Positions 2,644 to 8,590 are shown, counted from the first letter of the stretch. The stretch: 57,722 nt of DNA from Acidimicrobiia bacterium (GCA_035711995.1 DASTBQ010000110.1:1-57722), one strand, 5' to 3'. The notes: generated by a model from the letters alone, not told the origin. Translations and numbers: made by a program.

Positions 2644-3090
2644 GTGGAGGCAACTACCGAACTGAGCGTGGTGCTCAGGGACAACGGATTCCGACTCACC
2701 AGTCCTCGTTGGCTCGTCTGGTCGGTGCTGCGCTCGGCCACAGGCCACCTCACCGCCGATGAGGTGGCGGAACGAGTGAACGCCACCGACCCCACCGTCA
2801 ACATCTCATCCGTATACAGGTCACTGGCTCTCTTCGAAGACCTCGACCTGGTCAGAGAGTCACACCTCGGCATCGACGATTCGGCTCGTTGGGAGATCTC
2901 ACATCCCGACGACCACTTCCACATGGTCTGTGGACGTTGTGGATCCGTCGACCATCACATCGGCGAACTCGTAGACCAGGTCAGATCCCATCTCGCAGAT
3001 CATCACGAATTCACCGCGCAGAACATCGATCTCGTCGTCACAGGTGTCTGCGGCTCGTGCGATGCGAAGTCATCGAGCAAAACCTCATGA
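2644..3090 (+). CDS. Fur-family metalloregulator (Nur/Zur/Fur-like)
   Basis: Winged-helix region with LTSPRWLVWSVL...HLTADEV...ISSVYRSL. Metal-site motifs HPDDHFHMVCGRCG and CGSC are present. GTG start at 2644. The stop overlaps the next gene as ATGA. Confidence 0.85.
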   Translation: MEATTELSVVLRDNGFRLTSPRWLVWSVLRSATGHLTADEVAERVNATDPTVNISSVYRSLALFEDLDLVRESHLGIDDSARWEISHPDDHFHMVCGRCGSVDHHIGELVDQVRSHLADHHEFTAQNIDLVVTGVCGSCDAKSSSKTS

Positions 3091-3962
3091 GCATCTTCAA
3101 TCCGACTCGACCGGCCGAGGCCTTCGACAAGTTTCTCGCGGAAGACGCCCAAACCAGCCGGGAGCAACCGGTGTGGGAGGAGAGCGACGGGGCGATGCCG
3201 GCGCTCTATCTGAGCCACGGTGCGCCGCCCGTCTTCGACGACGCCCATTGGATGAGCCAGCTGTTCGGCTGGTCACAGACGATGCCTAAACCGAAGGCCA
3301 TCCTGATCGTGAGCGCACACTGGGAGTCGGCGCCGTTGAGTCTCTCGTCACCGGAGCCGTCGACGCCCCTGGTCTACGACTTCGGTGGCTTCGCCCCCAT
3401 CTACTACACGATGACCTATCCGACACCGGATGCCTCGGAGCTGACTTCTCGGGTGGCGGCGATGATGCCCGACACCGAGCCGGTCTATCAGCACACCGGT
3501 CGTGGTCTCGACCATGGTGCCTGGGTACCGCTCAAAGTCATGTACCCCTATGCCGACGTCCCGGTCCTGCAGATGAGCATGCCCACCCACGACCCGCATC
3601 GGTTGTTCGACCTGGGGAGGAGGCTTCGGCCTTTGCGCGACGAAGGCGTTCTCGTGATCGGGTCAGGATTCATGACCCATGGTCTGCGACACGCCACAAG
3701 GGAGATGTTCGAGGAGAACCAGGTTCCTGGTTGGTCGGCCGAATTCGACATATGGGTGGCAGAGGCTCTGGCACGGGGCGACCTCGAGACGCTGGCCGAC
3801 TATCACCAGGCGCCCGGGATGCCTTACGCCCATCCCACTGTGGAGCACTTCACGCCCTTGTTCATCGCACTGGGAGCGGCGACCGACCCCGAGGCGGGCC
3901 CGATCACCGTCATCGACGACTTCCAGTTCGGTTTTGCGAAACGGTCTGTCCAATACGCCTGA
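3087..3962 (+). CDS. Class III extradiol ring-cleavage dioxygenase (LigB / YgiD / 4,5-DOPA dioxygenase family)
   Basis: Motifs LYLSHGAPP, ILIVSAHWE, GLDHGAWVPL, VIGSGFMTHG and PTVEHFTPLF. ATG 3087-3089 overlaps the fur-like TGA (3088-3090). The upstream part of ORF 2889-3962 is a frame extension over the fur-like gene. Confidence 0.8.
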   Translation: MSIFNPTRPAEAFDKFLAEDAQTSREQPVWEESDGAMPALYLSHGAPPVFDDAHWMSQLFGWSQTMPKPKAILIVSAHWESAPLSLSSPEPSTPLVYDFGGFAPIYYTMTYPTPDASELTSRVAAMMPDTEPVYQHTGRGLDHGAWVPLKVMYPYADVPVLQMSMPTHDPHRLFDLGRRLRPLRDEGVLVIGSGFMTHGLRHATREMFEENQVPGWSAEFDIWVAEALARGDLETLADYHQAPGMPYAHPTVEHFTPLFIALGAATDPEAGPITVIDDFQFGFAKRSVQYA

Positions 3963-4024: not shown

Positions 4025-5206
4025 TCAGGCGCTGATCAGCCCAACTAGACAACCGTCGAGGATGGCGAGCATCTGATCTATCTCTGCTTCGGTGACGGTC
4101 AGTGCAGGCATGAACCTGAGCGAGTCGGGTCGTGGTGAGTTGAGGAGGAGCCCGTGCTCGAGTGCCGCCGCTACCGTCTCGCCGCCTATCGGGCGACCCA
4201 GGTCGAGAGCCAGCAGCAAGCCACGTCCCCGGACCGATCCGAGACCGTGACGCTGTGACAGCTTCTCGAGCCCGCTGGTCAGGTATCTCCCTTTGGCGAC
4301 CACACCGTCCATGAAACCCTCGCGGCTCAGTTCGTTGAGAACCGCGAGACCGACCGCCGTCATCAGTGGGTTGCCGTTGAACGTCCCACCCTGGTCCCCG
4401 TACTCGAAACAAGATGCCTCTCTGCTGGCCAGCAGAGCCGCGATGGGGACTCCGCCGCCCAGCCCCTTGCCCAGTGTGAGGATGTCAGGCCGGATCCCAG
4501 TGTTCTCGAAGGCAAACAGAGCTCCCGTCCGTCCCATGCCGGTCTGGATCTCGTCGAGGATCAACAGGATGCCGCGCTCGGTGGTCAGGTCGCGAAGACC
4601 CTTCAGGTATTCGTCATCAGCCGGGATCACGCCCGACTCTCCCTGGATCGGCTCGAGCATCACCGCGACCGTGTTGTCCCCGATCGCAGATTCGACGGCG
4701 TCGAGAGCGCCCATCTCCACCTTGGGGAATCCGGGGACCTTCGGCTCGAACAGCTGATCCCACCCAGGTTTACCCGAAGCGGACATCGTGGCAAGGGTCC
4801 GGCCATGAAAACCACCCGCAGTGGTGATGATCTCGTAGGCCCCATTGCGGTGGAGGGCACCCCACTTCCTGGCGAGTTTGATCGCACCCTCGTTTGCCTC
4901 GGCGCCGCTGTTCGTGAAGAAGACCTCGTCCATCCCCGAGACCGCAACGAGTCCATCGGCAAGGTCGAGCATCGGCCGGTTGTAGAAGGCCGGGCTCGGG
5001 CTGATCAGTCGTGATGCCTGGTCCGCGATGGCCTCCACTACCACATCGGGACTGTGCCCGAGACAGTTGACCGCCCAGCCCTGCACGAAGTCGAGGTACT
5101 CACGCCCATCCTCGTCGGTCAACCATGACCCCTTACCGGTCACGAAGACGATCTCGGGACGTCTCGTGATCTCCATCAACGAAGAGAATTGCCCTTTGTC
5201 GGTCAT
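4025..5206 (-). CDS. Class III PLP aminotransferase (acetylornithine/ArgD-like)
   Basis: 393 aa with [50 protein letters not shown] and [10 protein letters not shown] (PLP-Lys region). No other arg genes are nearby, so the physiological substrate is uncertain. Confidence 0.8.
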
Positions 5207-5333
5207 GGAGGCACCTTACGGAGTCGAAACGACCGTGAAGCTGGGCCGACTGCGGCCCCCGCTGAAGCTCCGGACCGGGGAACGGGCCGCCGAATCCAAC
5301 GAGGGACGGCTTTCCCCCGCGGGTGTCCCGTGC

Positions 5334-6230
5334 TCAGGAGGTGCGAGTGATCGCCACCAGGTCGTAGGCCACCGAGTAGCCGGGCTGGTCTGCACGGCAC
5401 GTGAGCTGGGTGGGCTCAGAAGCTCGACGCACCTTCACACTGACCTCCACAACTCCGTTCCCCTGACCGAAGACCACATCGGCGTGGTCGTGATCGGTGC
5501 GGCGATAGTCGATCACAACCAGATCCTCGAACCCGGTGATCCCCGCCTCTTGCCTCAGTAAGAACTCGGCTGCCTGGACCAACCGCGGCTGGATACTCCT
5601 TCCCCGGTGGTGCGCCAGGTCGATGCGGCCCGCCTCGTAGCTCGTGACGAGAGTCTCTGCGTCATCGGGAGCGACACGACCGAAGTAGTCGCCTCGGGGG
5701 AGGACGAGCAGATTCCCCGCGAACCTGTCGCCGCCCAGATGCGAAACCTCCCAGGTCCACCTTGGTCGGATCAGTGACAGCGTTCGATACAGAGGACGAC
5801 CCTGGTCCGCACAGCAGATGTCGTGGCGGCCGTGAGTGCACACGAGATAGAGCGGATGGTCGAGAACCTCCCCGGGACCCACATCCCCATCAGCGAGAGC
5901 GGTGAAGTCGACATCCAATAGGATGGAAGGGTCGGAGAGGTCGGCGGAAGCCAAAGAAGGGCCGACCCCGTTCCCCCCCGAATGCGCCTTGAAGAACACA
6001 AGGTCGCTTCGGGACGATCGATGTCGGATGAGCAGGATGCGAACAGGCCCCGCTCGTCGCTGCAGTTCGCGTGCGATGGCCTCGGGAAACTTGCTGTCGG
6101 TCAAGGCGTCGGGACCCCATGCCCCCGGTTGCTCGATAAGGAGCCAAGACGACACGAGTGATGCAGTGGCATAGAGAGGTTCCTCACGAACCAACGCCTC
6201 CGCGGAGCAACGCCAGTCGTCTCGAGTCAA
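5334..6230 (-). CDS. Sucrase/ferredoxin-like (thioredoxin-fold Fe-S) family protein
   Basis: WLLIEQPGAWG, LVCTHGRHDICCA and SHLGGDRFAGNLLVLP are family hallmarks (Cys/His cluster ligands). The TTG start at 6228-6230 overlaps the upstream TGA as TTGA. No alternative start exists before the conserved N-terminus. Confidence 0.8.
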   Translation of the reverse strand: MTRDDWRCSAEALVREEPLYATASLVSSWLLIEQPGAWGPDALTDSKFPEAIARELQRRAGPVRILLIRHRSSRSDLVFFKAHSGGNGVGPSLASADLSDPSILLDVDFTALADGDVGPGEVLDHPLYLVCTHGRHDICCADQGRPLYRTLSLIRPRWTWEVSHLGGDRFAGNLLVLPRGDYFGRVAPDDAETLVTSYEAGRIDLAHHRGRSIQPRLVQAAEFLLRQEAGITGFEDLVVIDYRRTDHDHADVVFGQGNGVVEVSVKVRRASEPTQLTCRADQPGYSVAYDLVAITRTS

Positions 6231-7417
6231 GTCTCGACCTCGAGCAGCCCCTCTCGAATCAGACGACGCACCAGCACGAGACGACCGGGCTCGCCGAGAC
6301 CGGGCAGATCGGAGACCTTGAAACTATCGCCCTCGCAGATCAACCTCATCGCCGGCTCCACCGAAACGGGCATCCGGAGCTCGCGGTCGCCGAGCATGAC
6401 CGATAGCCGCCCGTCGACGATCTCCAACAGACACACCGAACCCGCGCGACGGACGACCTTGGAGTCGTCGCTGACAGCATCGAGGGAGAGGAGCCGGTGG
6501 ATCTGCCCCCTGAGCAGCGCCTGCCTTGTGGTGAGGACCTTGCGTCGAAGCTTCCGGGCAACAACAGTCGGATCCACAGCGACGATCGAAGCCGCGATCT
6601 GATCGAGACGACTCCGAACGTCATCCACGAATTCATCGTCAGCGACGGTGAATCTCAGGGGAAGCGGCGTCTTCATGACGGGGTCAGACTCGACGATCCG
6701 AACCACCTCTTTCAAGACCGCCGCCCATGTGGTGGAGAGGATCCCAATCGTGATGTGCACCGACTCACTGTCTTGTGTAGCCGCTGAATGGGGGAATCCA
6801 GAGGGGATGTACAGCGAGTCGCCCGGCGCCAGCAAGACGTCGATCACTGCCGGCTGGCTGGGAGGGAGATCGTGACGCTCGTGAACCCACCATCGCTTGG
6901 TTCCGTGGGACTGGAGGACGAACACGTCGTGCTCGTCCTCGTGGGCTCCGAAGCCTTGCGCCCCCGGAGGCGTTACGTACGCATTGGCCTGGACGGGATG
7001 ACCAAGTGCCAGCTCCAGTCCCCGGCAGTAGTCGGCGAGCGGAGCCCAGTAACGATGCATGCTCTGGAAAACGATCGTGGCCCCGTTGACGAACTCGTCG
7101 AAGACGGCCCGGGCGTCGATGACGTCCTTTGTCTCATGAGTACCTGTACGGGTCGTCTTCGTGAATCGGCTACCGGGCAGGACCGCGCCATCTTTGACCA
7201 AACGGAACAGGGGGAGACGCAAACCCATGGTCGAAACGATCAGGTCGACATCGTCGAGGGAGAGAAGATCGTCGAAGCCTTCCTGGTCGTGGCCCTTTCG
7301 GTGGTGGGCATGGGTCGCCCACAACTTCTCGGCGAAGAGGTCGGGGTCACCCACGGCTCGGATGAGAGCTTCCCGACCCTCCTGATGTGCCTTGTCCAAG
7401 ATGCTGTGCAGGATCAA
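6227..7417 (-). CDS. JmjC / cupin-4 family Fe(II)/2-oxoglutarate-dependent oxygenase (ribosomal-oxygenase-like)
   Basis: GFGAHEDEHDVFVLQSHGTKRWWV provides the HxD part of the facial triad, and SVHITIG provides the distal His. It has YcfD/RoxA-like length plus a C-terminal winged-helix-like tail. The putative TTG start overlaps the repeat-gene stop (TTGA). The exact start is uncertain. Confidence 0.8.
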   Translation of the reverse strand: MILHSILDKAHQEGREALIRAVGDPDLFAEKLWATHAHHRKGHDQEGFDDLLSLDDVDLIVSTMGLRLPLFRLVKDGAVLPGSRFTKTTRTGTHETKDVIDARAVFDEFVNGATIVFQSMHRYWAPLADYCRGLELALGHPVQANAYVTPPGAQGFGAHEDEHDVFVLQSHGTKRWWVHERHDLPPSQPAVIDVLLAPGDSLYIPSGFPHSAATQDSESVHITIGILSTTWAAVLKEVVRIVESDPVMKTPLPLRFTVADDEFVDDVRSRLDQIAASIVAVDPTVVARKLRRKVLTTRQALLRGQIHRLLSLDAVSDDSKVVRRAGSVCLLEIVDGRLSVMLGDRELRMPVSVEPAMRLICEGDSFKVSDLPGLGEPGRLVLVRRLIREGLLEVET

Positions 7418-7788
7418 CTGTCCCGGGAGTCGCCGTCGGTGCCGTCGACACCGTCACTGTCGCTCGAGTCGACACCATCACTATCAGTGCTACCCACACC
7501 ATCACTGTCGCTCGAGTCGACACCGTCACTGTCGGTCGAATCGACACCATCACTATCAGTGCTATCCACACCATCACTGTCGCTCGAGTCGACACCATCA
7601 CTGTCGGTCGAATCGACACCATCACTAGCAGTGCTATCCACACCATCACTGTCGGTCGAATCGACACCATCACTATCGGTGCCATCCACGGCGTCGCTGT
7701 CTCCGCGATCCGGCTTGGGCTTGTGCTGGCCAACGGTCTCGATGTCGTCGTCGGAAAGGCTTCCGTTCGTGATCTCGTTATCGGTCAA
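7414..7788 (-). CDS. Acidic tandem-repeat protein: about 30-aa N-terminal segment plus 11-12 copies of DSDGVDS(T/S)
   Basis: A GAGGAG SD lies 6 nt upstream of the TTG start. The repeat period of 24 nt is a multiple of 3. Three codon-variant unit classes all encode the same octapeptide in this frame only, including Ser encoded as TCG versus AGC. No signal peptide or TM segment. Confidence 0.75.
   Translation of the reverse strand: MTDNEITNGSLSDDDIETVGQHKPKPDRGDSDAVDGTDSDGVDSTDSDGVDSTASDGVDSTDSDGVDSSDSDGVDSTDSDGVDSTDSDGVDSSDSDGVGSTDSDGVDSSDSDGVDGTDGDSRDS
7435..7701 (-). repeat. 24-bp tandem repeat array (about 11 units, partly organised as a 72-bp super-repeat) inside the acidic repeat gene
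   Basis: Coding-strand unit classes are GATGGTGTCGACTCGAGCGACAGT, GATGGTGTCGATTCGACCGACAGT and GATGGTGTGGATAGCACTGATAGT, read directly from 7456-7695. Confidence 0.95.
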
Positions 7789-7794
7789 TGGTCA

Positions 7795-7800
7795 CTCCTC
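7795..7800 (-). promoter_or_regulatory. Shine-Dalgarno (GAGGAG) of the repeat-protein gene
   Basis: Minus strand reads ...cgaccGAGGAGtgaccaTTGaccgataac. Confidence 0.7.
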
Positions 7801-7896
7801 GGTCGGGGTCGCTCACCGTACTCGTGTCGTAGTACCCCGCAGCCCGCCTCCCCACCCGCGTCTTTTCCGAGATAGGTTGGAGACAATTGCGAAGGG

Positions 7897-8298
7897 ATGA
7901 CAGTGATCGGATGGGTCGACAACATCGAAAGACTGACCGTGGAGAACGACGACTTCAGGAAAGTCGTGCACACCGGGAAGCACAGCCAGCTCACCGTCAT
8001 GTCGATACCACCCGGTGGAGAGATCGGTTGGGAGGCTCATAATCACCTCGACCAATTCCTGCGTATCGAACAGGGCAAGGGCCGACTCGATCTCGGTACC
8101 AGTGATGACTCGGTCGACGAGAGCCATGAGATCGAGGACGACTGGGCATTGATCGTCCCCGCAGGGACCTGGCACAACGTGGTGAACACGGGCGACGGTG
8201 ACCTCAAGTTGTATTCGATCTACTCACCTCCGGAGCACCCCGACGGAACCGTGCATCGCACCAAGACCGAGGCGGACGCGGACGAACACCATCACTGA
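7897..8298 (+). CDS. Small cupin-2 domain protein with an acidic/His-rich C-terminal tail
   Basis: Cupin motif 1 is GGEIGWEAHNHLDQFLRIEQG and motif 2 is VPAGTWHNVVN. The C-terminus is EADADEHHH. It is transcribed divergently from the repeat operon. Confidence 0.8.
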   Translation: MTVIGWVDNIERLTVENDDFRKVVHTGKHSQLTVMSIPPGGEIGWEAHNHLDQFLRIEQGKGRLDLGTSDDSVDESHEIEDDWALIVPAGTWHNVVNTGDGDLKLYSIYSPPEHPDGTVHRTKTEADADEHHH

Positions 8299-8333
8299 GA
8301 GGACCACTCGAAGGCTGCCGTATGCAGAGAAGG

Positions 8334-8371
8334 GTGCTGGCCGGAATTCTTCGACGGTCCCGGACCAGCAC
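8334..8371. terminator. Hairpin between the cupin gene and the tRNA-Pro 3' end
   Basis: GTGCTGGCCGG ... CCGGACCAGCAC, an 11-bp stem with a 1-nt bulge. Confidence 0.45.
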
Positions 8372-8378
8372 CTGTGAG

Positions 8379-8452
8379 TCGGGACGGCGGGATTTGAACC
8401 CACGACCTCAGCGTCCCGAACGCTGCGCGCTACCAAGCTGCGCCACGTCCCG
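8379..8452 (-). tRNA. tRNA-Pro (anticodon CGG)
   Basis: Hand-folded cloverleaf: CGGGACG-TG-GCGC-AGCTTGGTA-GCGC-G-CAGCG-TTCGGGA-CGCTG-AGGTC-GTGGG-TTCAAAT-CCCGC-CGTCCCG-A. 74 nt. CCA is not encoded. Confidence 0.93.
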
Positions 8453-8590
8453 ATCTGGCAAGGAATTGTACCGACAGGTCTCGGAGACGCCAGATCGGGG
8501 CTCCCGAATTCGGTCGTTGCGCACTCAAAATCGGCTCTTCACTACTGGTAGTTGCCGAGATAGTCTGTCCCGGTCAAGATCGAGGAGCCG

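Follow-up and report, generated by a model that had tools for sequence, protein, structure and literature searches.

What does a gene that encodes little more than acidic octapeptides do directly upstream of the gene for a JmjC oxygenase? The question is raised by positions 5334-7800 of DASTBQ010000110.1 (GCA_035711995.1), a 57,722-nt stretch of DNA that was analyzed as a whole (hereafter the window) and that protein matches assign to Acidimicrobiia. On its minus strand, three consecutive genes, joined by TTGA overlaps, encode a repeat protein (REP), a JmjC_2-family oxygenase (JmjC) and a Suc_Fer-like protein. An earlier reading of the sequence (the original prediction) had proposed that the oxygenase hydroxylates the repeat protein, in a system resembling those that make peptides produced by the ribosome and then modified post-translationally (RiPPs), the third protein being an Fe-S partner. 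The features it named, which were the REP open reading frame (ORF), a consensus GAGGAG 6 nt ahead of its TTG start (7795-7800), both TTGA overlaps, the iron triad of the oxygenase and the Suc_Fer motifs, were all found at the coordinates it had given. We report that the REP gene is linked to the oxygenase gene across actinobacterial genomes, and we argue, with modest confidence, that REP is made on the ribosome as a substrate dedicated to the oxygenase encoded beside it, in the manner of RiPP systems.

Linkage of the REP and JmjC genes

The original prediction called for a comparison of gene neighborhoods, which we carried out by searching one genome per GTDB species with the JmjC alignment. 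The scan returned 80 loci with JmjC homologs at 36-72% identity, from Acidimicrobiia, Egibacteraceae/Euzebyales, Nocardioides, Pseudonocardia, Amycolatopsis, Rhodococcus and Mycobacterium; 73 had enough DNA upstream of JmjC to be testable. Under a strict criterion (an ORF that ends at or just before JmjC, with [LIVM]-x-[DENG]-[DEN]-D-[IML]-x-[TS] near its N terminus and an acidic tail of 35 aa or more), 64 of the 73 loci contained such an ORF directly upstream of JmjC. We inspected the nine misses. Seven had acidic repeats and a variant motif, such as SLSDDEIRT, RLEDQDIKT or GLKDEDIEA. At L005, repeats are present in an ORF broken by masked runs of N; the upstream DNA of L032 is also masked, and L048 has no candidate REP ORF upstream of JmjC. 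After this inspection, the number of loci in which an acidic repeat ORF precedes JmjC rises to approximately 71 of the 73. The strict search gave no such ORF in any of 263 control regions (73 opposite-strand, 60 far-upstream and two sets of 65 downstream).

The reciprocal test gave the same picture. All six REP-like proteins that we looked up, from Salinispora vitiensis, Leifsonia sp. AG29, Leifsonia poae, a Rhodococcus metagenome-assembled genome (MAG), a soil actinobacterial MAG and the closest relative of the window that we found, are encoded directly upstream of a PF08007 gene, and Suc_Fer follows in three of them. The repeat ORF is therefore conserved beside orthologous oxygenase genes from Acidimicrobiia to Nocardioides, Pseudonocardia, Amycolatopsis, Rhodococcus, Mycobacterium, Salinispora and Leifsonia, and the original prediction withstands one of its own criteria for refutation, the absence of this ORF at such loci.

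The Suc_Fer gene lies directly after JmjC in about 80% of the loci and is absent from about a fifth, including those of Salinispora, one Leifsonia and a Rhodococcus MAG. Since it is present in only this fraction, it is an accessory member of the cassette, which corrects the original prediction. Where Suc_Fer is missing, a gene of the glyoxalase/VOC family follows JmjC in the Rhodococcus MAG (L083-L085) and at L032, where we judge it by its sequence; in Leifsonia sp. AG29 (L082) such a gene adjoins JmjC but is oppositely oriented. This gene could replace Suc_Fer as an accessory, or its presence could be coincidental.

All-versus-all clustering of the ORFs at the 80 loci revealed no further family beyond clade-local synteny and no conserved protease, transporter or exporter, or regulator. 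Only REP, JmjC and Suc_Fer are common to these loci, and the leader protease and exporter expected of RiPP systems are not among them. The flanks of the 80 loci contained no detectable homolog of the other neighbors of the window cassette. This applies to the aminotransferase gene 127 nt downstream, which the original prediction had left as a possible member. Its product matches the acetylornithine transaminase equivalog NF002985 (618 bits, cut-off 568), and this argD gene recurs beside the cassette only in the closest relative found (L086); it is a housekeeping gene and a bystander. Together, the neighborhood, control, reciprocal and clustering results support a functional link between the genes, in a unit that consists of REP and JmjC with Suc_Fer as a frequent accessory.

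Translation of these genes appears to be coupled. The canonical 4-nt overlap between JmjC and Suc_Fer is conserved in 42 of 66 loci. At the REP/JmjC junction, 30 loci have an in-frame overlap at the equivalent position, which is CTGA in 23 of them and TTGA in the window. Among Acidimicrobiia, the conserved N terminus of JmjC (L-T-L-H-S ... AL-x-R-C-V-G-D-P) has as its first codon the one that overlaps the REP stop. Ten loci with in-frame overlaps have no ATG, GTG or TTG in the JmjC frame before the conserved VGDP, the first canonical start being 21-60 codons in; at a further locus (L003) it is 73 codons in, and the NCBI gene call is shortened by approximately 73 conserved residues. JmjC starts at a CTG overlapping the REP stop were seen at L003, L004, L007, L009, L010, L012, L017, L018, L021, L025, L027 and L030. 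In genomes where the JmjC frame lacks a canonical start for 21-73 codons, synthesis of the enzyme seems to need CUG reinitiation after REP termination, or a change of frame. No slippery heptamer was seen at the end of REP in the sequences inspected, so that we prefer to explain the JmjC N terminus by reinitiation rather than by a programmed -1 frameshift. Reinitiation at CUG would keep JmjC levels low and strictly dependent on REP translation. The window JmjC itself has a canonical TTG start. Other clades have up to approximately 100 nt between the two genes and a separate start codon for JmjC, and still keep REP.

Leader, acidic core and catalytic residues

REP was predicted to consist of a non-repeat N terminus of about 30 residues and an array of octapeptides. 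This is what we found: 29 residues (MTDNEITNGSLSDDDIETVGQHKPKPDRG) are followed by 11 octapeptides of the form DSDGVDS[TS], some of them variant, and a terminal DGDSRDS. The protein is 31% Asp, with a net charge of -37 and an isoelectric point (pI) of about 4. Cys and aromatic residues are absent from it, hydrophobic residues are nearly so, and its one His and two Arg lie outside the regular repeat units. Tandem Repeats Finder detected a period of 24 nt at 7444-7680 (9.8 copies, score 269) and, in the same interval, a 72-nt super-unit (3.3 copies, 95% match, score 411), whose 95% identity points to recent amplification. Copy number shifts in frame: the window has 11-12 units, compared to 4-5 in its syntenic closest relative found (L086/P0251), where the corresponding repeat region occupies 8001-8207. 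The repeat region is rich in T-ending codons, and the GC content of 7501-8000 (0.574) is the lowest in the first 14 kb.

REP matched no Pfam or NCBIfam family. For REP and five homologs, no Pfam family was found even at E values up to 10, a search in which the HMMER filters drop most matches above approximately 0.1; the resemblance to thrombospondin type 3 or DxDxDG calcium loops raised by the original prediction thus receives no Pfam support. A REP profile search of 1.84 billion representative proteins retrieved 94 clusters, nearly all of 35-170 aa. The homologs are named "hypothetical protein" except for one "BatC protein" from Leifsonia poae (P0277), probably a low-complexity mis-annotation. 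The family is easily overlooked, because the gene is short and of low complexity, is described by no family model and is annotated as hypothetical.

Alignment of REP homologs revealed a motif, L-x-D-[DE]-[DE]-[IM]-x-[TS], near the N terminus. In an anchored alignment of 63 distinct sequences, the Leu is present in 61, the Ile in 55 and the Thr in 61, counts that are limited by what the ORF-selection pattern allowed; the motif is also prominent in unbiased MAFFT alignments (A3, A4). Codon entropy within the motif is 1.03 at position 3 and 0.46 and 0.45 at positions 1 and 2, which is supportive only, since the motif was itself used to select the ORFs. The tails that follow differ between clades. 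Acidimicrobiia have DSDGVDST or DTDGVDTT octapeptides, Nocardioides and Egibacteraceae have DADGTD-type hexapeptides, other Acidimicrobiales-type MAGs have DDTGD or DDAGA pentapeptides, and Mycobacteriales, Micromonosporales, Pseudonocardiales and Microbacteriaceae have units of 20-28 aa such as GEGPADGGSNPEGHDGGADGTA. Asp is the sole residue found in all 68 tails and makes up at least 13% of each. Thus, REP proteins (53-142 aa across loci) combine a conserved leader with a core that is hypervariable in sequence and period, yet always acidic and accompanied by small residues.

The oxygenase belongs to PF08007 (JmjC_2; 82.6 bits, cut-off 22, E = 2.3e-23), and its catalytic residues are intact. 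As predicted for the iron triad, H159, D161 and H210 (HxD...H) are conserved in at least 95% of 66 homologs, as are K174 and a QANAY motif. In an alignment with the NO66 motif pHyDdieaFVLQleGrKlW, K174 falls at +15 from the first His, which we take to be the position of the Lys that binds 2-oxoglutarate (2OG) in NO66. Because the Fe ligands, K174 and the QANAY motif are conserved, JmjC looks catalytically competent and 2OG-dependent. In a profile search of the Protein Data Bank (PDB), NO66 was the best match (E = 1.5e-20), followed by MINA53 and YcfD.

We also built AlphaFold2 models, which were mediocre, as measured by the predicted local distance difference test (pLDDT 58 for JmjC and 68 for the Suc_Fer-like protein), from alignments of 19-20 sequences. 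Using Foldseek, the whole JmjC chain, in a low-confidence model, aligned to NO66, MINA53 and YcfD (E = 1.8e-12 to 4.5e-6, template modeling score 0.3-0.44). Overall pLDDT was 57.6, and most of the last approximately 90 residues were of high confidence (block pLDDT 72-92). This C-terminal domain, modeled as beta-beta-beta(-beta)-alpha-alpha, is conserved (R324, R345, P350, V381-L382, R385-L386 and E389-G390) and contains an Arg-rich block, LGDRxLxxP ... RxVLxRRLxREGxL. The best non-oxygenase Foldseek matches of this part include the recognition elements of PqqD, ThcOx and McbB, all non-significant (E = 0.4-1.2, probability up to 0.8).

The Suc_Fer-like protein matches PF06999 (69.3 bits, cut-off 34.9), and both motifs singled out in its sequence, CTHGRHDICC and HLGGDRFAGN, are conserved. 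The conserved residues are C8, C131, H136, C139, C140, H164, D168 and C278. Candidate cluster motifs are C131-x8-C140 and H164-L-G-G-D168 (5736-5750), with Asp at the position of the second His. We take the ligand pattern of Apd1 and Aim32 to be Cys-x8-Cys plus H-x-G-G-H; HLGGD in place of HxGGH, together with the extra conserved Cys residues (8, 139 and 278), suggests unusual cluster ligation. No solved homolog was found by sequence or fold, and a Foldseek search with the model returned nothing significant.

REP as a probable substrate or possible partner of the oxygenase

How might these components work together? If REP is the substrate, its motif L-x-D-[DE]-[DE]-I-x-T would be a leader bound by the Arg-rich C-terminal domain of JmjC, which may be winged-helix or recognition-element-like, and the Fe(II)/2OG center (H159, D161, H210, K174) would hydroxylate the repeated acidic tail. 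The likeliest target is Asp, converted to 3-hydroxy-Asp, because no other residue is shared by the tails of every clade. The original prediction had named Asp, Val or Thr; Val and Ser/Thr are not conserved across the units of different clades, leaving the Asp part of that proposal standing. The product would probably be an intracellular, multiply hydroxylated, polyanionic small protein, with binding of Fe, Ca or Mg as the most obvious consequence. A processed, secreted peptide, previously offered as one outcome, is less likely, because no protease or exporter is conserved. The Suc_Fer-like protein may be an accessory redox partner that re-reduces the oxygenase iron after uncoupled turnover, or it may perform a second oxidation, by analogy with SmaO/SmaX. 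REP would be translated first, with the enzyme made by reinitiation through translational coupling.

Several observations fit a substrate role. The closest solved relatives of JmjC are protein hydroxylases, both cassette junctions have 4-nt overlaps, and the RiPP-like layout noted in the original prediction is real: the leader is conserved and the repeated core varies. Moreover, JmjC homologs at 30-34% identity on Streptomycetaceae megaplasmids occur in more conventional RiPP settings. In S. clavuligerus (L087, NZ_CP065235.1, 3161-3307), an annotated 48-aa peptide, MDDKKTSLEPDEIEVIPPVSTPDFVIADNDPSDPPIAIADPDPFDPVI, with the leader SLEPDEIEVI ends 4 nt before the oxygenase ORF, and genes for an S9 peptidase and an ABC transporter lie nearby, genes that we saw only in this distant relative. 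A Kitasatospora plasmid (L089, approximately 2518-2733) encodes an upstream peptide with SLDPADIVVV. Both leaders resemble SLSDDDIETV of the window, and both peptides are non-repeat and rich in Asp and Pro. In Streptomyces sp. W1SF4, the oxygenase gene follows genes annotated as "TOMM precursor leader peptide-binding protein" and "thiopeptide-type bacteriocin biosynthesis protein", and in Streptantibioticus it follows an ORF resembling an rSAM-SPASM protein. The Streptomycetaceae oxygenases share the C-terminal GKLVLVRRLMQEGLL block. The S. clavuligerus and Kitasatospora peptides look like an uncharacterized RiPP family related to the window cassette.

Other observations weigh against a substrate role for REP. 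Known substrates of the ribosomal oxygenase family are basic ribosomal proteins rather than polyanions. The absence of a conserved leader protease or exporter at the 80 loci departs from classical RiPPs. The C-terminal domain had no PqqD match in a Pfam scan and no sequence match in the PDB profile search, and its assignment as a recognition element is weak, given the Foldseek E values of 0.4-1.2 and a full-length model with a pLDDT of 58. JmjC is not basic overall (median pI 6.1); for this reason, overall charge complementarity between REP and JmjC, which we considered as a test, does not discriminate. The conserved motif, and not the repeats, could be the modified site, and near-1:1 coupling could equally mean a stoichiometric complex.

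The last of these points leads to the alternative that survives best, which we nevertheless regard as unlikely: REP stays unmodified and assists or controls the oxygenase, as a polyanionic buffer or metal-loading chaperone for Fe(II) or another divalent metal, as an inhibitor that acts as a pseudo-substrate, or as an RNA mimic through which a basic, for instance ribosomal, protein is offered to a hydroxylase of the ribosomal oxygenase type. A stoichiometric complex would fit the tight translational coupling, and ribosomal proteins are the substrates of every solved relative (NO66, MINA53 and YcfD). REP is also extremely acidic and predicted to be disordered, and its repeats are little constrained beyond charge. 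However, a mere polyanion needs no position-specific N-terminal motif kept across the sampled actinobacterial lineages, and in Streptomycetaceae relatives an enzyme and leader of this type go together with Pro/Asp-rich cores that do not repeat, in S. clavuligerus close to genes for a peptidase and an ABC transporter, as would be expected for a substrate.

A second alternative places the modification in the leader. Hydroxylases such as FIH recognize and modify a conserved sequence context, in the case of FIH a conserved ankyrin motif, and L-x-D-[DE]-[DE]-I-x-T is the only strictly conserved part of REP, with repeats whose sequence and period vary freely between clades. JmjC could thus modify a single Asp, Ile or Thr within this motif, the repeats forming a separate, non-hydroxylated module for metal binding or hydration. 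We think this improbable, as a conserved leader with a variable core is the usual RiPP pattern and multiplication of one and the same unit, to 11-12 copies in the window and 4-5 in its nearest relative, is typical of multi-core substrates.

It is very unlikely that REP is a regulatory upstream ORF, with a functionless peptide whose Asp-rich, ribosome-destabilizing chain tunes reinitiation at JmjC in response to, for example, Mg2+ or the supply of Asp-tRNA. Acidic nascent chains do destabilize ribosomes, as in the mgtL paradigm, and many Acidimicrobiia JmjC frames lack a canonical start and begin at a CTG overlapping the REP stop, such that enzyme synthesis appears to depend on REP. Against this, REP has a length of 53-142 aa and keeps a peptide motif that shows signs of purifying selection at the level of codons; it is kept where gaps reach approximately 100 nt and JmjC has its own start; and attenuator peptides do not normally keep an N-terminal motif across a phylum. 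That the repeat ORF is not a gene at all, but a DNA tandem repeat open by chance upstream of a stand-alone oxygenase, as its openness in several frames on both strands and its low GC content might suggest, is effectively refuted by the retention of frame and N-terminal motif in approximately 71 of 73 genomes although repeat DNA and unit differ wholly between clades, by copy-number changes that are always in frame, by the Shine-Dalgarno-like site ahead of the start and by the empty controls (0/263).

Returning to REP as a substrate, we tentatively entertain a more specific and more doubtful proposal, which is that the cassettes form an Actinomycetota-wide class in which a NO66-type JmjC enzyme grasps the acidic leader through a recognition-element-like domain and poly-hydroxylates Asp along the tandem-repeat core, a dedicated thioredoxin-like Fe-S protein serves as reductant or second oxidant, the product is an intracellular, metal-chelating poly(3-hydroxy-Asp) protein and, in many genomes, the enzyme is made only by CUG reinitiation once REP has been translated. 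Such a REP would be a gene-encoded, non-secreted metallophore or metal buffer, and biology would gain a new type of metal ligand in the form of a poly-hydroxy-Asp protein. To our knowledge, bacterial JmjC enzymes of the ribosomal oxygenase type are known only as hydroxylases of ribosomal proteins; a clade that encodes a non-ribosomal substrate of its own would extend the range of the family. The cassette would also make the processive or multi-site hydroxylation of proteins open to study with just two or three genes, and the pairing with Suc_Fer could reveal by what means bacterial 2OG oxygenases stay reduced when no ascorbate is available. As the cassette is present in culturable genera (Salinispora, Leifsonia, Amycolatopsis, Pseudonocardia and Nocardioides), these ideas are directly testable.

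The cassette, its surroundings and known systems

The features of the cassette and its neighbors are listed in Table 1. In the closest relative found (L086), the Cupin_2, argD, LigB and FUR genes recur. Upstream of REP, a search for IdeR, Zur, Fur and Nur boxes at 62 loci found none better than background. A promoter and terminator scan of 4900-8500 yielded nothing above shuffled expectation, and Rfam and tRNA scans of the window detected only tRNA-Pro, with no riboswitch or leader RNA.

Table 1. Positions of the cassette features and neighboring genes, numbered from the first nucleotide of the window
Feature	Position	Strand	Remark or basis
Shine-Dalgarno-like GAGGAG	7795-7800	(-)	6 nt before the REP TTG start; read directly from the sequence
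REP, 124 aa, TTG start, leader and repeat array	7414-7788 (stop included)	(-)	ORF
Conserved N-terminal motif LSDDDIET (REP residues 11-18)	7735-7758	(-)	Candidate leader/recognition sequence; alignments
Repeat array, 11 x DSDGVDS[TS] and terminal DGDSRDS	7417-7701	(-)	Candidate multi-copy core
TTGA overlap, REP stop/JmjC start	7414-7417	(-)	Putative translational coupling
JmjC_2 Fe(II)/2OG oxygenase, 396 aa	6227-7417	(-)	Pfam, PDB profile search, conservation, Foldseek
TTGA overlap, JmjC stop/Suc_Fer-like start	6227-6230	(-)	Read from the sequence
Suc_Fer-like protein (thioredoxin-like ferredoxin family), 298 aa	5334-6230	(-)	Accessory; Pfam PF06999 and conservation
tRNA-Pro(CGG)	8378-8452	(-)	Cassette neighbor
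Cupin_2 protein, 133 aa, divergently transcribed	7897-8298	(+)	Cassette neighbor
FUR-family regulator	2644-3090	(+)	Cassette neighbor
LigB-type dioxygenase	2889-3962	(+)	Cassette neighbor

The original prediction knew of no described system with this architecture. Our full-text literature searches (JmjC with a repeat precursor, Suc_Fer with a cupin, hydroxy-Asp RiPPs) likewise found no description of the cassette, and we found no report of a Suc_Fer-like protein paired with a JmjC enzyme. The principle of a JmjC hydroxylase acting on a ribosomal peptide, possibly with a fused recognition element, is already known.

Among known enzymes, the window JmjC shares with NO66, MINA53 and YcfD (RoxA) the PF08007 domain, the HxD...H triad and the Lys at +15. 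Their three-domain architecture (JmjC, helical dimerization and C-terminal winged-helix-like) is matched along the full length in the Foldseek alignment, albeit with a poor model (pLDDT 57.6). However, identity is only approximately 18-20%, and the gene of the window enzyme is coupled with that of an apparently dedicated acidic small protein; in E. coli, the YcfD gene is not known to be linked to that of its substrate. In addition, NO66, MINA53 and YcfD target His or Arg, whereas the likely window substrate is a polyanion whose regular repeat units contain neither.

For the C-terminal domain, the available text of the RRE-Finder v2 report (PMC12710340) describes genuine RiPP recognition-element folds fused to PF08007 domains and places the closest bacterial homologs of those JmjC proteins in RiPP-like contexts, with reference to lanthipeptide/prochlorosin, epimerase and 2OG-macrocyclase systems. 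The window domain is predicted to have the same order of secondary structure elements, with the weak matches to PqqD, ThcOx and McbB. In that text, the fusion is a passing remark, with no precursor family, repeat protein or Suc_Fer partner described.

The proposed chemistry has a parallel in SmaO/SmaX, for which the available text (PMC12186529) describes conversion of a RiPP Asp to 3-hydroxy-Asp and then to aminomalonate, with an Fe/2OG enzyme acting first and another iron enzyme, whose gene lies beside it, acting second. The comparison goes no further than analogy: the second enzyme has an HD domain and is not Suc_Fer-like, and that text mentions no repeat substrate. The window Suc_Fer-like protein itself resembles the [2Fe-2S] ferredoxins Apd1 and Aim32 in its PF06999 domain, Cys-x8-Cys and H-x-G-G, and differs from them in Asp168 for the second His, the extra Cys residues C8, C139 and C278, and a C-terminal beta-rich domain.

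Functional precedents are CzlI, which converts Phe to Tyr in curacozole, and BipG, an Orn hydroxylase in biphenomycin biosynthesis, both proven JmjC RiPP hydroxylases whose activity depends on sequences flanking the core (PMC11575548, PMC12707348). Like the window JmjC, they are Fe(II)/2OG enzymes encoded beside a ribosomal precursor peptide. CzlI and BipG perform tailoring steps at one site of a short core, within multi-enzyme clusters that include a protease and an exporter. In contrast, JmjC is the only conserved enzyme of the window cassette, which lacks a conserved protease or exporter and has a tandem acidic repeat core. The enzymes also differ in their nearest structures, which are YxbC for CzlI and NO66 for the window JmjC.

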